Both the position numbers and the translations under genes were made by a program. The notes beneath the pieces were generated by a model. It did no database searches. It saw nothing but the letters and a program-made list of their open reading frames with translations, and had not been told where the DNA came from. This document shows, one piece after another, positions 1,064-41,651 of a stretch of 64,000 bases of DNA (its first letter is position 1; every line of letters starts with the position of its first letter). The DNA is from an uncultured bacterium (GTDB lineage: Bacteria; Desulfobacterota_D; UBA1144; Nemesobacterales; UBA2774): positions 1,481,410-1,545,409 of the forward strand of contig CAWGRW010000009.1 in the NCBI GenBank assembly GCA_963825135.1, written 5' to 3'.

Positions 1064-2143
1064 TCATTCGACGTCTATGGAGGACGCGACTTTTCCCGTT
1101 TCAGGATTGTAAATATATTCCCCGCCCAGAGGGTGGGCCGGGAAATCCGTTGTTGTCTGCAGTTCTATGAATTTTCTGAGCTCGTCCATATTCTTCGGAT
1201 AATCACCGTATAGCTTATTATATCTGGCCGACTTTGCATTCAGAAAATTTATATCCTCATCGATCTTCCGCTTGGATAATTCCGAGCTTTTGATCGCCCC
1301 GATCTTGGGCGCCAGAATGAATTTGCCTCCCATCGGGGCCTCCGGAATCCCGTTTTTCAACACGCCGGCCCTGACCATGTCTTCGAGCCCGGAGGGGGGC
1401 TTTCCATAGGTTTTGACGTACTCGCGGAGGGACTCGGTCAGTTTGTCTTCGAGGGACATGGTATCTATCTCCTCTATATTTCTCAGAGCGAAGTTCCTTC
1501 TCCCTTCGCTCGGGCTCGTTTCGTAGATTATTTCCCAGATTTTCCTCGAAAGCTCCCTGTTCCCGCCCTTCGCATGGGCCGACGCGGCCATGCCCTTCAT
1601 CGAGGCTGCCCTCAATGGGGAAATGCCCGGCTTCTCGGACGCTTCCTTGAACAGCTCTGCCGACTTTTCGTAGTCCTTCGGGTAGAAATAGTATATAAAG
1701 GCTTCCTCCAGGGGCAGGTTGTAGTTCCCGGGGTTGTTCTTCCTCCCTTTGTCGAGGAGCTCTATCCCTTTCTTCGTCTCGCCGAGCCCGAAAGGCGGAG
1801 GTTCGGCCAGGAAAGTGCCTCCGTACCTGTATGCGTTTATGAACTTCGGGTCGAGATCCGTGATGATATCGAAGTAGTGATAAAGCAGGTCGGAGTTCAG
1901 GTCAGCGGGTTTCTCTCCGCCGAAGTACTGGAGCGCCCGTATCCAGTAAATGTCGGCCAAAATCTCATAATATCCCAGGGACAGCTTTTTCAGGGACGAC
2001 GAAGATATGTAGAGGCTCCCTTCGACAGACCGGAACTTGCCCCTTATTTCGTCTATCCTTATCTGAAACGGAATCGATACCGCTACCAGCACGGCCAGAA
2101 TGACGAGGGCGACAACAGGCTTTCTGGATGATATGACGGACAT
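1064..2143 (-). CDS. Hypothetical membrane-anchored protein with an N-terminal TM helix and TPR-like repeats. Last gene of the ABC-2 transporter operon.
   Basis: 359 aa, N-terminal hydrophobic helix (PVVALVILAVLVAVSIPF). A 4-nt gap to the upstream ABC-2 permease gene suggests co-transcription. I recognised no family. Confidence 0.45.
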   Translation of the reverse strand: MSVISSRKPVVALVILAVLVAVSIPFQIRIDEIRGKFRSVEGSLYISSSSLKKLSLGYYEILADIYWIRALQYFGGEKPADLNSDLLYHYFDIITDLDPKFINAYRYGGTFLAEPPPFGLGETKKGIELLDKGRKNNPGNYNLPLEEAFIYYFYPKDYEKSAELFKEASEKPGISPLRAASMKGMAASAHAKGGNRELSRKIWEIIYETSPSEGRRNFALRNIEEIDTMSLEDKLTESLREYVKTYGKPPSGLEDMVRAGVLKNGIPEAPMGGKFILAPKIGAIKSSELSKRKIDEDINFLNAKSARYNKLYGDYPKNMDELRKFIELQTTTDFPAHPLGGEYIYNPETGKVASSIDVE

Positions 2144-2146
2144 ATA

Positions 2147-2950
2147 TTATTTGAACTCTTTCCTCTCGAAGATGATGATTGCGAGTATCAGAAGGGCGAG
2201 CGTATATAGGACCGCATAGACCGTGGTGTATAAGACCAGGTCGGGGTTAACGATGCCGCCGTAAACGGCTTCGCTCCTCACGTCGAATTTCTCCAGATTG
2301 GGAATTATTCTGTACACCGCTTCTGAAAATATTGCGGTTACCGGGCTCTTGACTTCCTCGGCGAACAGTCTGATATCGCTCGAGAAGCGGCCTATCGCGA
2401 TGGCGAAAAAGGTGAAAAGGGCGCTCATAACCGGGGTCGTGAAGCTCGAGAAGACGAGCGCTATGCCGATTACGACGAGGAATTCGAGGTATTCGAAATA
2501 TATCGCGTTAAAGAACTCCGCGTAGTAATGCCCCCCGTAATAAAAGTTTATCAGCCCCTCGTACCTGATTTCTATGAACAGCACCAGCAGGAATAGAATA
2601 AGCGCCATTCCGAGCGTGATTACGAATAGAGTAAGCCCAAGGCCCAGATACTTCCCGAATATGAATTCGTATCTCTTTATAGGCTTCGAGAAGATGTTGT
2701 AGACAGTCTTTCTCTCCACCTCTTTATATACGAGTCCGATACCCAGAAATACGGAGATAAGGATTCCGATTATGGATATCGCGGTGAGTCCCAGGTCCTT
2801 GACTATCTTGTTGTGCTGTTCCGCCGATATGCTGGCGAAGACGAGCGAGCTCATGATCATTATTATTGCGAATAAGATAAGGCTGTAGAGGACCCTGTCC
2901 CTGATTGCCTCAATGAACGTATTGTGCGCGACGCTCAGTATTCTTCTCAT
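2147..2950 (-). CDS. ABC-2 family transporter permease
   Basis: 267 aa, about 6 predicted TM helices. It lies immediately downstream of the ABC ATPase gene. Typical ABC-2 (NatB/YadH-like) topology. Confidence 0.65.
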   Translation of the reverse strand: MRRILSVAHNTFIEAIRDRVLYSLILFAIIMIMSSLVFASISAEQHNKIVKDLGLTAISIIGILISVFLGIGLVYKEVERKTVYNIFSKPIKRYEFIFGKYLGLGLTLFVITLGMALILFLLVLFIEIRYEGLINFYYGGHYYAEFFNAIYFEYLEFLVVIGIALVFSSFTTPVMSALFTFFAIAIGRFSSDIRLFAEEVKSPVTAIFSEAVYRIIPNLEKFDVRSEAVYGGIVNPDLVLYTTVYAVLYTLALLILAIIIFERKEFK

Positions 2951-2983
2951 CTTGTCCTGTATGCCTGACGGGGGTCGAAGTCT

Positions 2984-3928
2984 TTACTGTTCCTTTTGTG
3001 AATTCTCTTTGCGGGCTTCCTCCACAAAGAGTCCTTCGAGGGACTTCCTCAGCGGATGAATGGAGACAATCTCCGCCGAAGTGCGTGTAACGGCGTCGAG
3101 GACCCTCCGTTTAATGTCTTCGTCGAACTTGAGCACTATGTACCCTGCCCTGCTGTCCATCTCTACCCTCAGGTCTTTTACGCACTGCCTTATCTCATCT
3201 CCCGGCCCTTCCAGGTGCATTTCATAGTCGGTGTGAATCTCTTTGAGAAGATCCCCGATCTTGCCTGTTTTTATTACGGCGCCTCCCATTATTATCCCTA
3301 CCCTATCGCAGAGTGCTTCGACGTCCGAAAGCATGTGGGAGCTAAGGAGTATAGTCTTTCCGCTCCGTTTTTCTTCCAGTATCAGGTCTTTTATCTCTCT
3401 CCTGCCTATGGGGTCGAGTCCGCTCATGGGCTCGTCGAGAATGATGAATTCCGGGTCGTTTATGAGGGCCTGTGCGATGCCGATCCTCTGCATCATGCCC
3501 TTTGAGTATTTCCTCATCTGCACCTTTTTTGCGTGCTCCATCCTTACTTTCAGCAGCAGCTCGTCTACCTTTTCGCGGAGGTGTTTCCGTTTCAGGCCGT
3601 GAAGCTCGCCCATGTAAAAGAGCAGCTCCTCGCCCGTGAGGTAGTCGTAGAAGTAAGGGTTTTCCGGAAGGTAGCCGATCCTGCTCTTGACCTCGGAGCT
3701 CGAATGCTCTTTGCCCATGAGCTCTATCTTCCCTTCGGTCGGAGTGACGAACCCCAGGATTGATTTGAACGTCGTGGTCTTTCCGGCGCCGTTAGGCCCG
3801 ACGAAACCGAACACCTCTCCTTTATGAACGTCGAAGGATACGTCTTTCAGGACGCGTGTCTTCTTCCCCGAAAACCCGGTTTTATAGTCCTTGACCAGGT
3901 TCGTGATTTTGAGAATTGTTTCTGGCAT
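2984..3928 (-). CDS. ABC transporter ATP-binding protein (ABC-2 / NatA-like)
   Basis: Walker A GPNGAGKTT, ABC signature YSKGMMQRIGIAQAL, Walker B IILDEP, H-loop SSHML. Confidence 0.9.
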   Translation of the reverse strand: MPETILKITNLVKDYKTGFSGKKTRVLKDVSFDVHKGEVFGFVGPNGAGKTTTFKSILGFVTPTEGKIELMGKEHSSSEVKSRIGYLPENPYFYDYLTGEELLFYMGELHGLKRKHLREKVDELLLKVRMEHAKKVQMRKYSKGMMQRIGIAQALINDPEFIILDEPMSGLDPIGRREIKDLILEEKRSGKTILLSSHMLSDVEALCDRVGIIMGGAVIKTGKIGDLLKEIHTDYEMHLEGPGDEIRQCVKDLRVEMDSRAGYIVLKFDEDIKRRVLDAVTRTSAEIVSIHPLRKSLEGLFVEEARKENSQKEQ

Positions 3929-4014: not shown

Positions 4015-4614
4015 TTATCCGTCACAGGCGGGGTCACCGCTTCCGGATTCGAACGTGCCGTTTGCTCCCGAGGCCTGCGTTGTCACTGTACACTTGATGA
4101 CCTTGTCGGTGAATGCGGAGAAATCTTTCCTGCCGTTAACCCTCGCACTTGTCATAGAAGCCTCCCATCCGAAGTCTCCTTTGAGGGACTGAGCATCGGT
4201 GCCGGCGTCGTCGCTCCATGACAGACAGTATCCTGCTTTGGGATCGTTACAATCGGCGGAGCTCGAGGGGGTGCCGTCGTTAGTAACCGCGTCTTCGAAT
4301 GTAGAATCTAATAGTGCGTCTGCGGGATCGCTTGTTCCGCCCGGGTCTCTGAGTGTTCCCGCGGTGCCGAGAGATCCTATGAGGTTTGTAAAGTTCCTGT
4401 CACCGTTATCGTCCAGGTCCTGTTCGAAATACTCATATTCGGAGTCTTTTAGTGTCTGCAGGGCCTTCCGCGCGTTAGCTTCATTTGAAGAGATACGGGC
4501 TTTTAACAGGTTAGGTATAGCGATTGCGAGCAGGATACCGATGATAGCCGCCACTACGAGAAGCTCGATGAGGGTAAAGCCGTTTTCAATATTTCTATTT
4601 CTCTTCCTGATCAT
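4015..4614 (-). CDS. pilA: Type IVa pilin (PilA-like), paralog 1
   Basis: Class III signal peptide / prepilin motif KRNRNIENG|FTLIELLVVAAIIGILLAIAIPNL (Gly-1, Phe+1, Glu+5). About 170-aa variable C-terminal domain ending in Cys-containing …ACDG, like Myxococcus-type PilA. Confidence 0.85.
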   Translation of the reverse strand: MIRKRNRNIENGFTLIELLVVAAIIGILLAIAIPNLLKARISSNEANARKALQTLKDSEYEYFEQDLDDNGDRNFTNLIGSLGTAGTLRDPGGTSDPADALLDSTFEDAVTNDGTPSSSADCNDPKAGYCLSWSDDAGTDAQSLKGDFGWEASMTSARVNGRKDFSAFTDKVIKCTVTTQASGANGTFESGSGDPACDG

Positions 4615-4640
4615 ATTATCGCCCTTTATAGGTAATTATT

Positions 4641-4656
4641 AGCAATATACATACCA
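4641..4656 (-). promoter_or_regulatory. Putative sigma-54 (-24/-12) promoter for pilin paralog 1
   Basis: Minus-strand sequence TGGTAT-gtata-TTGCT (GG-N10-GC core) about 27 nt upstream of the start codon. Weaker match than the paralog-2 promoter. Confidence 0.3.
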
Positions 4657-4980
4657 CAACCGGCGCTAATATATCTGGTTTACATGCTTTCGTAACAGGC
4701 CCTCATTGTTATATAAATGGATACTCGAAATCGTATCGAGGGTAAGAATATTCATATGATACATTTCTTCAGAAAACGACTTGACAATATTTGTCATAGT
4801 GATGCGATTTCTGTTATCCGGGTGGGTCGAAGAAGAAATTGAAAGATAACATTCTTCCGAAAAACACAGCGGTGAGCTATTGTCAAGTTGTCAATTTTAT
4901 CATGAATACCAAGGGAATAATGGATCAATCGAATAGAACTATGGTCGTCGATTGGAGTAACGGTATACTGTTTCGGGAAT

Positions 4981-5022
4981 AAAAAAACGGCGGGTTTATT
5001 ATAAACCCGCCGTTTTGAGTTT
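4981..5022. terminator. Bidirectional rho-independent terminator between the two pilin genes
   Basis: A7-CGGCGGG-tttattataaa-CCCGCCG-TTTTGAGTTTTT. GC stem flanked by an A-run and a T-run, immediately 3' of pilin paralog 2 (minus strand). Confidence 0.6.
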
Positions 5023-5050
5023 TTCTTTCTGTTGATTATCTATCAGAGTG

Positions 5051-5656
5051 TTAATCGCAGCCGGGTGCAGTACGATGGGCCTCGAATGTCCCGACAGCTC
5101 CGGTAGCTTGTGTACTTAATGTGCATCTTATAACGCCGTCTCCGTATACGGAGAAGTCCCTTCTGCCGGTCTTGTTAAAGCTCGACATACTGTTCTGCCA
5201 GCCGAAGTCGTCAAAACCGCCTGAAGCATTTGCGGTGAATGCCGCGCCGGTCGAATCATTAAAATCACTTTGTATGCAATAACCCGCCTTCGGGTCAGCA
5301 CAGAGTGCGCCTCCTGTACTTAATGCGCCCTCGAAGCTGTCGTCAACAAGAGCGTCCTCTTCTACACTTGTACCCCCGGGATCACGCAAAGACTGAGCAG
5401 TTCCTAGTGCACCAATTTGATCGGTAAAATCTCTTCCACCCTGATCGTCCAGGTCCTGCTCGAAATACTCGCCTTCGGCATCCCTGAGCGTCTGCATGGA
5501 CTTTCTGGCGCTGGCTTCGTTCGCCGACATTCTCGCCTTTATAAGGTTGGGTATCGCGATCGCGAGCAGTATGCCGATGATTGCCGCTACCACTAGAAGT
5601 TCGATAAGCGTGAAACCCTTCTCTCCCTTTTTAACTCTGTTTAACTTGCTTAACAT
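5051..5656 (-). CDS. pilA: Type IVa pilin (PilA-like), paralog 2
   Basis: KGEKG|FTLIELLVVAAIIGILLAIAIPNL prepilin motif. The 25 aa after the cleavage site are identical to paralog 1; the C-terminal domain is divergent and ends …PGCD. RBS GGAGG 8 nt upstream. Confidence 0.85.
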   Translation of the reverse strand: MLSKLNRVKKGEKGFTLIELLVVAAIIGILLAIAIPNLIKARMSANEASARKSMQTLRDAEGEYFEQDLDDQGGRDFTDQIGALGTAQSLRDPGGTSVEEDALVDDSFEGALSTGGALCADPKAGYCIQSDFNDSTGAAFTANASGGFDDFGWQNSMSSFNKTGRRDFSVYGDGVIRCTLSTQATGAVGTFEAHRTAPGCD

Positions 5657-5698
5657 ATCAATAACCTCCGTTTCGGAAATAGTCTTGTAAACTAAGGA

Positions 5699-5714
5699 TG
5701 CAAAGGCCGTGCCA
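5699..5714 (-). promoter_or_regulatory. Sigma-54 promoter (consensus-quality -24/-12) for pilin paralog 2
   Basis: Minus-strand sequence TGGCAC-GGCCT-TTGCA matches the sigma-54 consensus TGGCAC-N5-TTGCW. It sits about 43 nt upstream of the ATG, with the GGAGG RBS in between. Confidence 0.55.
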
Positions 5715-5988
5715 CGTGCCGTTATTACGGCGTATTACACACATAAACCGCTGAAATACAATCGGAATTAGCTTTTATCACGAATATGCCGGATGGCATC
5801 CGGAACCATGGTCGCACTCACAAATTTTATTAATTGTGACATTTTTGCGTCCTTGACGTGACAATGTGACAAAATTTGTCAGGATGTCTGTTTTGGATAC
5901 TATCGGCATGGATATGATTGGGGAATGTTTATCAATCTGAGGAAGTATGCTATTTTATACTACCTATTTTAAAGGAGGCGGTTTTATC

Positions 5989-6519
5989 ATGCATAGAGAT
6001 AAGCATTTCGTTTTCCCGTTACTAATTTCGATTGCCTTTTTCGCCCTGATTGTTACCGGATGCACGACTATCAAAACTACTTCCTACTTTGCCCCGACAA
6101 AGACCAAGCTGCGCGACTTTCAGGCCATTCAGTTCGAGACGTTCGAGACTCAGATCGAGGATTTCCCTAAAGATGCTCTCACGAAGATCCCGGATAAAGC
6201 CGCCGCTCTCCTTGAATCCGAGAATAAGTTCAAAGAGGTTAAATACGGCAAGATTGAAAATATCCCCGCCGAGGATACTATAGTGTTGTTAGGCGAGATA
6301 AGCGAGTACAGACCGAGCTCGGATGTCTCGTTCGAAGGCGGCGCGCTTAAATTCGGCGAAGTCTCTATTTCCATCAAGCTCGCTCTGGTCAACAAAGCTA
6401 CGGGAGATGAAATCGCGACCGGAGAAGTGAACGGATTCAGCTCGACTGGATTTATGGCGAAGGACATTTTCCAAAGCCTCGCGGAGGAAATAGTAAAGTA
6501 TATAAACGAAACCTATTGA
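5989..6519 (+). CDS. Hypothetical lipoprotein
   Basis: Signal peptide with lipobox LIVTG|C. Strong RBS AAAGGAGG 10 nt upstream of the ATG at 5989; the track ORF starts earlier at 5947. No family recognised. Confidence 0.5.
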   Translation: MHRDKHFVFPLLISIAFFALIVTGCTTIKTTSYFAPTKTKLRDFQAIQFETFETQIEDFPKDALTKIPDKAAALLESENKFKEVKYGKIENIPAEDTIVLLGEISEYRPSSDVSFEGGALKFGEVSISIKLALVNKATGDEIATGEVNGFSSTGFMAKDIFQSLAEEIVKYINETY

Positions 6520-6561
6520 GCGGTCGGTACGACGCTTTGAAAATTAAATTTGGAGGATGAT

Positions 6562-7575
6562 ATGAGAGAGCTTGTTCTTTGTCTTTTACTTCTGCCTGTG
6601 ACTATGGGCGCATTCCAGTCGGGAGAGCTTGCTGTGTACGCGCAGGGCGCGGGAGGCGCAGCGGATTTATATAAACAGGGGCGGGAGGCGTTTATGAAGT
6701 TCACGCCTGAAGGGTTCGATCAGGCGATTTTACTCTTCAACCAGGCGATCAAGGCGGACCCCAAGTACGCGCAGGCCTACGCCGGTCTCGCAGAGGTTTA
6801 TTCATTCATGGGTTATTACAGGTATCAGGTCAGGGAGGAGTACGAGAAATACTACAACGATTCCTATGCAAACATGGTCAAGGCTCTTCAGTTCGGTCCG
6901 AACCTCGAAGAGACGCAGGTTGCGCTTGCCTACAGCTATATACAGCTGAGCAGGGAAAAAGACGCGAAGATAACCGCGCAGAATATATTGGCCAAAAACC
7001 CGAACAACGCCGAGGCCCTTTACGTTCTATGGTTCGCCAGCGGCGAGAACCCGGACTCGCCTGACATAAGAAAGGTAATCGAGCTCAACCCGAAATTCGT
7101 ACCGGCTTACGTGGGTCTGGGGAACTCATTATTCTTCAAGAAGAGAGCCTACGGGCAGGCGACCGAGAACTTCAGGAAAGCCGCAGAATTAGCCCCCTCG
7201 GCCCAGATCCATAATTTATTCGGCACCGCCCTCAGGACGCAGGGTCACTACAATGAGGCGATCGAGCAGTACGAGATGGCTATAAAACAGAATCCGAACT
7301 ATGCGCCCGCTTATATGAATCTCGGCATCACCTACTATTACCTCAACAAGTTCAACCAGGACATCGACAACCAGAAAAAAGCGATATCGCTCAACCCGAA
7401 ATATCCCGATGCGTACTTTTTTATCGCGGAGGGTTATGAAAAGGCAAACAATCCGCAGCAGGCCGTCATCTACTACAAGAAATTCCTCGACGTGTCTCTC
7501 GAGCAGGAAATGTACGCGGGTTACGCGGCACAGGCGAAGCAGAGGCTTTCGGCTCTCGGCGGAGGCGGCAAGTAA
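6562..7575 (+). CDS. Secreted tetratricopeptide-repeat (TPR) protein
   Basis: Signal peptide MRELVLCLLLLPVTMGAF. Multiple TPR-like repeats (…AIKADPKYAQAYAGLAEVY…, …NPNYAPAYMNLGITYYYL…). GGAGG 5 nt upstream of the ATG at 6562. Confidence 0.7.
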   Translation: MRELVLCLLLLPVTMGAFQSGELAVYAQGAGGAADLYKQGREAFMKFTPEGFDQAILLFNQAIKADPKYAQAYAGLAEVYSFMGYYRYQVREEYEKYYNDSYANMVKALQFGPNLEETQVALAYSYIQLSREKDAKITAQNILAKNPNNAEALYVLWFASGENPDSPDIRKVIELNPKFVPAYVGLGNSLFFKKRAYGQATENFRKAAELAPSAQIHNLFGTALRTQGHYNEAIEQYEMAIKQNPNYAPAYMNLGITYYYLNKFNQDIDNQKKAISLNPKYPDAYFFIAEGYEKANNPQQAVIYYKKFLDVSLEQEMYAGYAAQAKQRLSALGGGGK

Positions 7576-40806: not shown

Positions 40807-40826
40807 TCGGACTCTTAGCACCTAAT

Positions 40827-40950
40827 ATTTGTCACTGCGAGCGTAGCGCGGCAATCTCATCACTTTCTCGTTTCATTTTTGTCATCCTGAACTCGTTTCA
40901 GGATCTGATCTTTTAAGTTTTGTCATTCCCGAATGTCTTTATCGGGAATC
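40827..40950 (+). repeat. Tandem array of three REP-like hairpin repeats, each TTTGTCA[C/T] plus an 8-bp-stem palindrome
   Basis: Units begin at about 40828, 40878 and 40919. Unit 2 is ATCCTGAA-ctcgt-TTCAGGAT and unit 3 is ATTCCCGA-atgtcttta-TCGGGAAT; unit 1 is degenerate. Confidence 0.6.
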
Positions 40951-40997
40951 CATTCTTATCCTTTAACGCCACCTCTTATATGTGGATGCGTGGGAGT

Positions 40998-41051
40998 GGG
41001 GGGTACGTTAAATTCCCCCCAATTGAGTTAAATCCCCGTCTGTGGTACTAT
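40998..41051 (+). promoter_or_regulatory. G6-N11-C6 hairpin followed by a putative sigma-70 promoter (TTGAGT-17-TACTAT) upstream of dcd
   Basis: GGGGGG-tacgttaaatt-CCCCCC at 40998-41020, then TTGAGT (41023-41028), a 17-nt spacer and TACTAT (41046-41051). The dcd ATG is at 41097. Confidence 0.3.
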
Positions 41052-41096
41052 GCTTTTCCCTAAGCGGTAAAACCCAAATCACCAGGAGTAAGAACA

Positions 41097-41651
41097 ATGG
41101 GAGTCAAGCCCGACCACTGGATCAGAAAGATGGCCAAAGAGCATAAAATGATAGACCCTTTCGTCGACGGGCAGGTGAGGGAGGGCGCTATATCGTACGG
41201 CCTCTCCGCATACGGCTACGACATCAGGGTGAGCGACGAATTCAAGGTATTCACTAACGTGTACAACACCGTAGTCGACCCCAAGGGTTTCGATGAACGA
41301 TCGTTCGTCGAGATTAAATCGGACGTCTGCATGATCCCGCCCAATTCATTCGCGCTCGCGCGGACGGTCGAGTACTTCAGGATACCCAGGAGTACCATCA
41401 CGCTCTGCGTCGGGAAGTCCACATACGCCAGGTGCGGGATTATAGTGAACGTCACCCCGTTCGAGCCCGAATGGGAGGGGTTCGTCACGCTCGAGATCTC
41501 GAACACCACGCCTCTTCCGGCGAAAATATACGCCAACGAGGGCATAGCCCAGGTGCTTTTTTTCGAGGCCGACGAGATGTGCGAGGTCTCTTACGCGGAC
41601 AAGAAGGGGAAATACCAGAAGCAGATGGGGATAACTCCGCCCAGGGTGTGA
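41097..41651 (+). CDS. dcd: dCTP deaminase
   Basis: 184 aa; …[22 protein letters not shown]…, …[31 protein letters not shown]…, typical of Dcd. Confidence 0.9.

Follow-up and report, generated by a model that had tools for sequence, protein, structure and literature searches.

Predicted sigma-54 promoters and conserved upstream dyads, candidate activator sites, of two tandem type IV pilin genes in an uncultivated bacterial lineage

The stretch of DNA analysed here (contig CAWGRW010000009.1 of an uncultured bacterium, positions 1,481,410 to 1,545,409; 64 kb, referred to as the window) carries on its minus strand two tandem genes encoding type IV pilins: pilin 2 (5051-5656, 201 aa), which is the upstream member of the pair, and the second paralogue, pilin 1 (4015-4614, 199 aa). 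We propose that each of the two genes represents a transcription unit of its own, which is served by a sigma-54 promoter of the -24/-12 type and by an upstream dyad-symmetric enhancer to which an activator of the NtrC family binds. For this reading we estimate a probability of about 0.8.

Upstream of pilin 2 the pilin strand carries the promoter element TGGCACGGCCTTTGCA (5699-5714, minus strand; -12 GC at 5701-5700). In a weight-matrix scan for sigma-54 promoters, which covered both strands of the window and thereby about 128,000 positions, this element ranked first, and it is the sole match to the sigma-54 consensus without any mismatch. The weaker element upstream of pilin 1, TGGTATGTATATTGCT (4641-4656, minus strand; -12 GC at 4643-4642), ranked third in the same scan; its GG and GC are spaced correctly for the core GG-N10-GC, and its two mismatches are located elsewhere in the consensus TGGCAC-N5-TTGCW. 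The match on rank two lies inside a coding region and is oriented opposite to the gene. Both pilin promoters are correctly oriented and are situated 26-42 nt ahead of the respective ATG, and transcription is predicted to start about 12 nt past the GC, near 5688 for pilin 2, with a leader of about 32 nt, and near 4630 for pilin 1, with a short leader. A scan of positions 4500-6100 for sigma-70 promoters yielded three matches versus 3.1 expected, none of them on the pilin strand. A consensus and a weaker sigma-54 promoter had been proposed at these two places in an earlier note on this DNA, which was made from its letters alone; both proposals are supported by the ranks in the scan and by the conservation described below, and a direct check found all seven sequence elements listed in that note in place.

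For comparison, 69 metagenome loci (L081-L149) were collected by a scan with the family-specific C-terminal part of the pilin, and one further locus (L150), comprising 20.6 kb of a 2.67-Mb contig from a second complete-looking genome, was added by exact look-up. An additional set, L001-L080, consists of unrelated pilins of many phyla which were matched through the generic N-terminal motif of the full-length pilin alignment. The related loci are orthologous and share a conserved gene order, i.e., BirA, a small open reading frame (ORF), a TPR protein, a lipoprotein, the diverging pilin or pilins, an ABC ATPase, an ABC-2 permease and a 359-aa ORF, and this order is kept over protein identities of 40-95%. 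The intergenic regions upstream of pilin 2 and of pilin 1 were aligned separately (alignments A3 and A4). In A3, sharp invariant islands stand out from diverged sequence in the order lipoprotein-side block, dyad, second site, GTTA patch, -24/-12 element and Shine-Dalgarno sequence; the corresponding islands of pilin 1 in A4 are the terminator, the dyad, an A/T-rich patch and the -24/-12 element.

The promoters proved to be conserved throughout this collection. TGGCA(C/T)-N5-TTGCA is found 35-50 nt before the ATG of the first pilin in nearly all related loci, at pilin identities from 95% down to about 50%, and in loci with a second pilin this gene is preceded by TGGTA(T/C)-N5-TTGC(A/T), the same weaker form as at 4641-4656. 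The GG and GC show no variation, in contrast to the N5 spacer and the leader, which change from lineage to lineage. The combined pattern TGG[CT]A[CT]-N5-TTGC[ATC] has 78 matches on both strands of 417 kb of related loci; 75 of these lie at most 260 nt upstream of a pilin ORF, and at least one of the three others sits at the end of a contig, which would truncate a second pilin. Two side observations concern these elements. The -24 element of pilin 2 is preceded by a copy of itself with an offset of 7 nt (5708-5720, minus strand; pilin strand CGGCACGTGGCACG), and the upstream GCAC of this copy also occurs in close relatives. In addition, five loci (L109, L117, L119, L121 and L123) contain a second sigma-54-like element, TGGCA(C/T)-N5-TTGCC, about 110-155 bp upstream of the main pilin promoter, which is itself a 5-N5-5 dyad (GGCAy/TTGCC) and might be a tandem promoter or an activator site.

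Between the two pilin genes a rho-independent terminator follows pilin 2 (4984-5016, minus strand), for which the terminator scan indicated a 15-pair stem and a subsequent T run. Its hairpin is kept by compensatory changes, CGGCGGG/CCCGCCG versus GGGAGGG/CCCTCCC (L084, L090, L097, L125 and L088; A4). Pilin 1 therefore appears to be a separate transcription unit, and each pilin needs its own promoter. The tandem second pilin is retained in many related loci. In an Rfam scan of positions 4400-6200 nothing came near the gathering score, and the weak matches sit on the terminator hairpin.

Upstream of each promoter lies a dyad of 15 bp with the core TGACA-N5-TGTCA. The primary candidate enhancer of pilin 2, TGACAAAATTTGTCA (5867-5881), is a perfect palindrome and conserved column by column in A3; the candidate enhancer of pilin 1, TGACAATATTTGTCA (4782-4796), is a single site, matches the core perfectly and is invariant in A4. 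When up to one mismatch was allowed, TGACANNNNNTGTCA had two matches in the 64 kb, both perfect and one upstream of each pilin gene, compared to an expectation of about 0.05 perfect copies in the window (P for two or more about 1e-3). The hexamer TTGTCA/TGACAA reaches a density of 9.1 per kb in the two pilin-upstream regions, of 1.06 per kb in other intergenic regions and of 0.21 per kb in coding sequence. The earlier note had named a comparable frequency of this motif elsewhere as the result that would speak against its proposal, and these densities show the opposite. Seven hexamers were counted in the pilin-upstream regions, whereas 0.5 are expected by composition (P about 1e-6), and none out of 5000 shuffles reached seven. 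The remaining hexamers of the window stand alone, with neither a partner nor a sigma-54 match nearby, and for these reasons we rejected their membership in a regulon. Among them, the intergenic region after pheS (40807-41097) harbors (T)TTTGTCA(T) three times, at 40829, 40879 and 40920, the latter two each followed by a short hairpin; they show no dyad pairing and no sigma-54 match is nearby.

The association of dyad and promoter recurs in the relatives. In 396 kb of related loci, 48 of the 53 perfect dyads fall into the 4.3% of the sequence which lies 60-300 bp upstream of a pilin sigma-54 promoter, and sites with at least eight out of ten dyad matches number 80 versus 8 in shuffles. The 53 distinct sites give the consensus gTGACAAAWTTTGTCAc, with equally conserved halves and a purely A/T spacer. 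Within the 20.6 kb of L150 exactly one sigma-54 match and one dyad were found, both upstream of the pilin. The distances are likewise kept: the promoter-distal end of the pilin-2 dyad (5881) is located 167 nt upstream of the first T of TGGCAC, an offset shared by L081, L082, L103 and L113, and that of the pilin-1 dyad (4796) is located 140 nt upstream of the -24 element, as in L081, L082 and L086. In most relatives the dyad is found at -99 to -180 from the -24 element, and a few extra sites occur at -280. Two features of an upstream activating sequence of the NtrC type are present in these sites, dyad symmetry over about 15-17 bp and a location about 80-200 bp upstream of -24/-12.

A second, degenerate candidate enhancer site of pilin 2, which was absent from the list of the earlier note, was found at 5837-5851 (minus strand; pilin strand GACGCAAAAATGTCA, plus strand TGACATTTTTGCGTC), its centre lying 30 bp promoter-ward of the centre of the primary dyad. 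Its half-site TGTCAC (GTGACA on the plus strand, 5836-5841) is conserved and the other half is, in the sub-clade of this genome, degenerate or shifted by 1 nt; within the respective columns 172-190 of A3, G, T and C are invariant. Other relatives possess full second dyads 29-31 bp from the first, and many of them have two or three sites; overall, the centre-to-centre spacing of neighboring sites amounts to 29-31 bp in 15 out of 20 pairs. Apart from the dyad and the second site, no element of the enhancer zone is conserved in A3 and A4. A possible third pilin-2 site, TCACAAATTT at 5818-5827, was set aside, since it lies outside the 30-bp register and is only weakly conserved. Closer to the promoters, a small conserved patch precedes each -24 element by about 45-55 bp (at about 5760-5770 for pilin 2 and about 4695-4712 for pilin 1); it consists of a GTTA core in A3 and of AAyAAT with a downstream TTA in A4 and is unlike the consensus of IHF.

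The five repeats which the earlier note regarded as enhancer sites fared differently. Two of them, 4781-4796 and 5867-5881, contain the conserved dyad. The direct repeat TTGTCAAGTTGTCAA (4880-4894) is opposed by gaps in most relatives in A4 and is not kept in L081 and L082, which span it; L082 and L086, the closest relatives, have only the dyad at -140. At the CCGG palindrome CCGGATGGCATCCGG (5789-5803; A3 columns 220-240), L081, L082 and L083 show unrelated sequence, and L087 alone has CCGG-N7-CCGG at the aligned place. The extra half-site TGACAA (5859-5864), which abuts the primary dyad and belongs to the 5858-5866 portion of the repeat listed at 5858-5871, is specific to this genome; L081, L082 and L083 lack it at the aligned place. 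As none of the three is conserved even in relatives with 84-95% identical pilins, we treat them as chance or strain-specific features, and the direct repeat probably stands outside the core enhancer. The distance of the repeats from the -24 elements, given previously as about 100-250 bp, was measured as 75-240 bp.

A closed complex of the sigma-54 holoenzyme opens only upon ATP hydrolysis by a bacterial enhancer-binding protein (bEBP; PMC2725144), and the conserved sigma-54 promoters therefore imply an activator. The two conserved dyads, at a distance of 125-170 bp beyond the promoters, are very probably its docking sites. Pilin 1 lacks a divergent neighbor, so the dyad is best assigned to the pilin promoter and not to the lipoprotein gene which diverges from pilin 2. 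According to the mechanism we propose, dimers of an NtrC-family activator with a helix-turn-helix of the Fis type would probably bind the dyads and then oligomerise into the active ring; with about 100-140 bp of A/T-rich DNA looped out, the ring would reach the closed complex of sigma-54 and remodel it, upon which transcription would begin at the two predicted start sites. The two units differ in their elements: pilin 2 combines a consensus -24/-12 element with two sites and a strong Shine-Dalgarno sequence (GGAGG, 5665-5669, minus strand; AAAGGAGGT, invariant in A3), while the corresponding features of pilin 1 are TGGTAT...TTGCT, a single site and a weak Shine-Dalgarno sequence. The strong Shine-Dalgarno sequence indicates that pilin 2 is probably the major pilin, and together with the stronger promoter and the number of sites it suggests a graded output from one regulator, which would set the ratio of a highly expressed major pilin to a weakly expressed accessory one.

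Several findings weigh against this proposal. Signatures of rpoN or of a bEBP (GAFTGA, ESELFGH, Walker A, RpoN box) were not detected in the six-frame translation of the window, which covers 4 kb on one side of the pilins and 58 kb on the other, and in about 70 related loci searches with the same signatures and with Pfam were also negative to a distance of 5-10 kb from the pilins; we thus assume that the factors are encoded elsewhere. In this genome the second site of pilin 2 is degenerate and pilin 1 has a single site, whereas classical NtrC-type enhancers use at least two. The IHF consensus WATCAANNNNTTR (up to one mismatch) has no match between the enhancer and either promoter, and the enhancer-to-promoter distance shows no preference for a helical phase (Rayleigh test, p about 0.14). 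Moreover, the related loci are not independent samples, and some are near-identical. Finally, the dyad is unlike the published PilR site of P. aeruginosa, which consists of TGT-N11-ACA/AGA plus GTCT elements (PMC8035640, PMC6058289), and it is arranged differently; a linkage of pilR/pilS to the pilins is absent from the window and from about 70 related loci. If we call the presumed regulator PilR-like, this consequently denotes the role expected of it and not its membership in that family.

Four other explanations of the repeats were weighed. The dyads could be operators of an ordinary helix-turn-helix repressor or activator, which controls the lipoprotein-TPR operon or represses the pilins, while the sigma-54 activator binds elsewhere or has no DNA-binding domain. 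The pilin-2 dyad does lie about 45-60 bp upstream of a conserved promoter block of the lipoprotein gene (5926-5963), and no bEBP gene is visible near the pilins. Some bEBPs, such as FlgR and CtcC, act without binding DNA, which would also accord with such a scheme. We nevertheless regard it as unlikely, because the same dyad precedes pilin 1, which has only the pilin-2 terminator and no divergent gene on that side, because nearly all perfect dyads of the related loci lie in the interval upstream of a pilin sigma-54 promoter, and because dyad and second site are the sole conserved elements of the enhancer zone; the paired-site spacing of 29-31 bp furthermore matches that of NtrC-type enhancers (PMC11841059). 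Another possibility is that TTGACA/TGACAA represents -35 elements of sigma-70 promoters, which drive pilin, antisense or divergent transcripts, and that the -24/-12 matches are incidental. TTGACA at 4781-4786 is indeed a perfect -35 hexamer, and a 9-of-12 sigma-70-like site which uses TTGTCA at 5876 is directed to the lipoprotein gene. But sigma-70-like matches are no more frequent than in shuffles and none is on the pilin strand, the putative -10 element TACTAT (5898-5903) is not conserved in L081-L083, both palindrome halves are equally conserved although a -35 element would not need the second one, and the -24/-12 element is conserved with near-complete specificity for pilin genes. This makes an origin of the hexamers as -35 elements very improbable.

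The idea that the near-identical palindromes at 4782-4796 and 5867-5881 are recombination sites for the deletion, inversion or switching of pilins, as in phase or antigenic variation, draws on the fact that these 15-bp palindromes enclose a cassette of 1.1 kb with pilin 2 and its promoter and that the pilins are tandem paralogues. It is hardly credible in view of single-pilin genomes such as L150, which keep the dyad at the same place, and of the many loci in which a single gene is preceded by two or three dyads spaced by 30 bp; besides, the locus contains no recombinase gene and the position of the dyad is tied to the sigma-54 promoter. Just as implausible is the explanation of the repeats as a whole by chance. 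The pilin-upstream regions have 38% G+C, compared to 54% for the whole window, and such A/T-rich intergenic DNA holds many short palindromes; three of the five repeats listed earlier are, after all, unconserved. Against this stand the excess of hexamers over composition and shuffles, the tenfold excess of dyads over shuffles in the related loci and the column-by-column conservation of the dyads in diverged intergenic DNA. This refutes chance for both dyads and both promoters and leaves it as the explanation for 4880-4894, 5789-5803 and 5859-5864.

A sister clade (L129, L133, L134, L135, L137 and L142) has no TGACA dyad and carries G[T/C]GCAA-N4-TTGC[A/G]C at about -138 to -124 from the -24 element (e.g., GTGCAATTTGTTGCAC and GCGCAATAATATGCGC). 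Relative to the dyad of the main clade, the changes are symmetric in both half-sites, and the site of the sister clade looks like a switch in enhancer specificity. A further-reaching version of our proposal, which we put forward tentatively and consider rather doubtful, holds that the enhancer is read by a dedicated and genomically unlinked bEBP which is no orthologue of the classical PilR, that the specificity of this protein and its site were rewritten jointly as the phylum radiated, and that this one regulator sets the ratio of the two tandem pilins via the strength of promoter and sites. If this is so, the loci would provide a natural series for the evolution of enhancer-binding specificity.

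Both pilins contain the prepilin N-methylation motif G|FTLIELLVV, followed by a hydrophobic alpha-1 helix (PF07963 N_methyl, TIGR02532), and with this class III signal peptide and a profile matching the N-termini of solved PilA structures both ORFs qualify as type IV pilins. The nearest N-terminal helices are those of Myxococcus PilA and Geobacter PilA-N. The two proteins are about 60% identical to each other (alignment A1). More than 2000 homologs of pilin 2 are present in the databases, many of which, where named, are labelled Candidatus Dadabacteria or Thermodesulfobacteriota. For pilins the family is unusually well conserved, with 60-95% identity over many metagenome bins, and within A1 the acidic stretch EYFEQDLD is invariant and four cysteines are conserved.

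On the other side of the pilin-2 enhancer, the divergent lipoprotein gene (5989-6519, plus strand) encodes 176 aa with the lipobox LIVTGC; it has no family match in Pfam or NCBIfam, and its synteny is preserved in 41 related loci. It is followed by the gene of the TPR protein (6550-7575, plus strand), for which PilW is the best NCBIfam match and Tgl another one, both below the cut-offs. The earlier suggestion that the intergenic region also holds a divergent promoter for the lipoprotein gene fits an invariant block in A3, TGTTTATCAA...AAGTATGCTATTTTATACTAC (5926-5963, plus strand), which is identical in 12 loci whose pilins are about 65-95% identical. The block contains the dyad AGTAT-N8-ATACT and is a candidate extended -10 promoter of sigma-70 (TGcTATTTT), about 25 nt before the ATG of the lipoprotein gene; its strict conservation suggests an operator which overlaps the promoter. 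Downstream of the pilins, genes encoding an ABC ATPase, an ABC-2 permease and a 359-aa protein without family assignment (1064-3928, minus strand) follow in conserved synteny. The ABC genes recall the ABC-like PilGHI of the Myxococcus pilus cluster (PMC6060248), and the locus may encode further pilus functions besides the pilins.

The analysis provides a concrete cis-regulatory code for the pilin genes of an uncultivated, Dadabacteria-like lineage, i.e., a sigma-54 promoter in combination with gTGACAAAWTTTGTCAc. In complete genomes this motif can serve to locate the remaining members of the regulon as well as the cognate activator, and it can aid the reading of metatranscriptomes. Our literature searches turned up neither a paper that connects Dadabacteria with sigma-54 nor one about the regulation of pilins in this lineage. 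The control of type IVa-like pilins by sigma-54 and an activator, which is familiar from Proteobacteria, Myxococcota and Desulfobacterota, would be extended to another deep lineage, which suggests that the arrangement is old; the understanding of this type of regulation as such is left unchanged.

In Pseudomonas, Myxococcus, Geobacter and other bacteria, it is well established that the gene of the major pilin, pilA, is controlled by sigma-54 together with PilR (PMC2725144, PMC6058289, PMC3333781, PMC7170775). As in these systems, the pilins of the window are predicted to be transcribed from a -24/-12 promoter with activator sites upstream. The differences are that two tandem pilins are present here, each with a promoter and an enhancer of its own, and that pilR/pilS are not beside the pilins, unlike in Geobacter, where pilR lies immediately upstream of pilA (PMC2725144). 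The sites differ as well, TGACA-N5-TGTCA here as opposed to the PilR site quoted above, a comparison confined to P. aeruginosa. DVU2114 of Desulfovibrio vulgaris is a sigma-54 response regulator which was assigned to pilin genes by DAP-chip and whose site is conserved in a few related species (PMC3333781). Its targets are pilins of the Flp/Tad type, whereas the pilins described here are type IVa-like.

With regard to geometry, the model case is NtrC at glnAp2 of enteric bacteria, where dyads about 100-140 bp upstream of a sigma-54 promoter, oligomerisation and looping were described (PMC11841059, PMC7962754). The same range is the usual distance between enhancer and promoter (PMC7962754), and the dyads found here fit it. 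As at glnAp2, they are dyad sites at a comparable distance upstream of a sigma-54 promoter. The NtrC site reads TGCACCA-N3-TGGTGCA; thus the site differs, as do the regulon and the signal. A further relative is the NtrC-like NmpR of M. xanthus, which binds GCGCA-N5-TGCGC, usually at two sites 14-15 bp apart, as demonstrated by gel shift and reporter mutagenesis (PMC11841059). It has in common with the sites described here a 5-N5-5 dyad upstream of a sigma-54 promoter and, as far as the related loci are concerned, a similar pairing, since centres 29-31 bp apart correspond to a gap of 14-16 bp. The half-site sequence is another one, the second site in the window is degenerate, and NmpR targets an oxygen-use regulon and pilR instead of pilin genes. 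Of the documented geometries, that of NmpR is the closest to these dyads. Taken together, the sequence data point to a well-supported but ordinary example of known pilin-gene control; what is new compared to the known systems is the lineage, the specific motif, a regulator unlinked to the pilins and a promoter-plus-enhancer unit which is present in duplicate, once for each of the tandem pilins.

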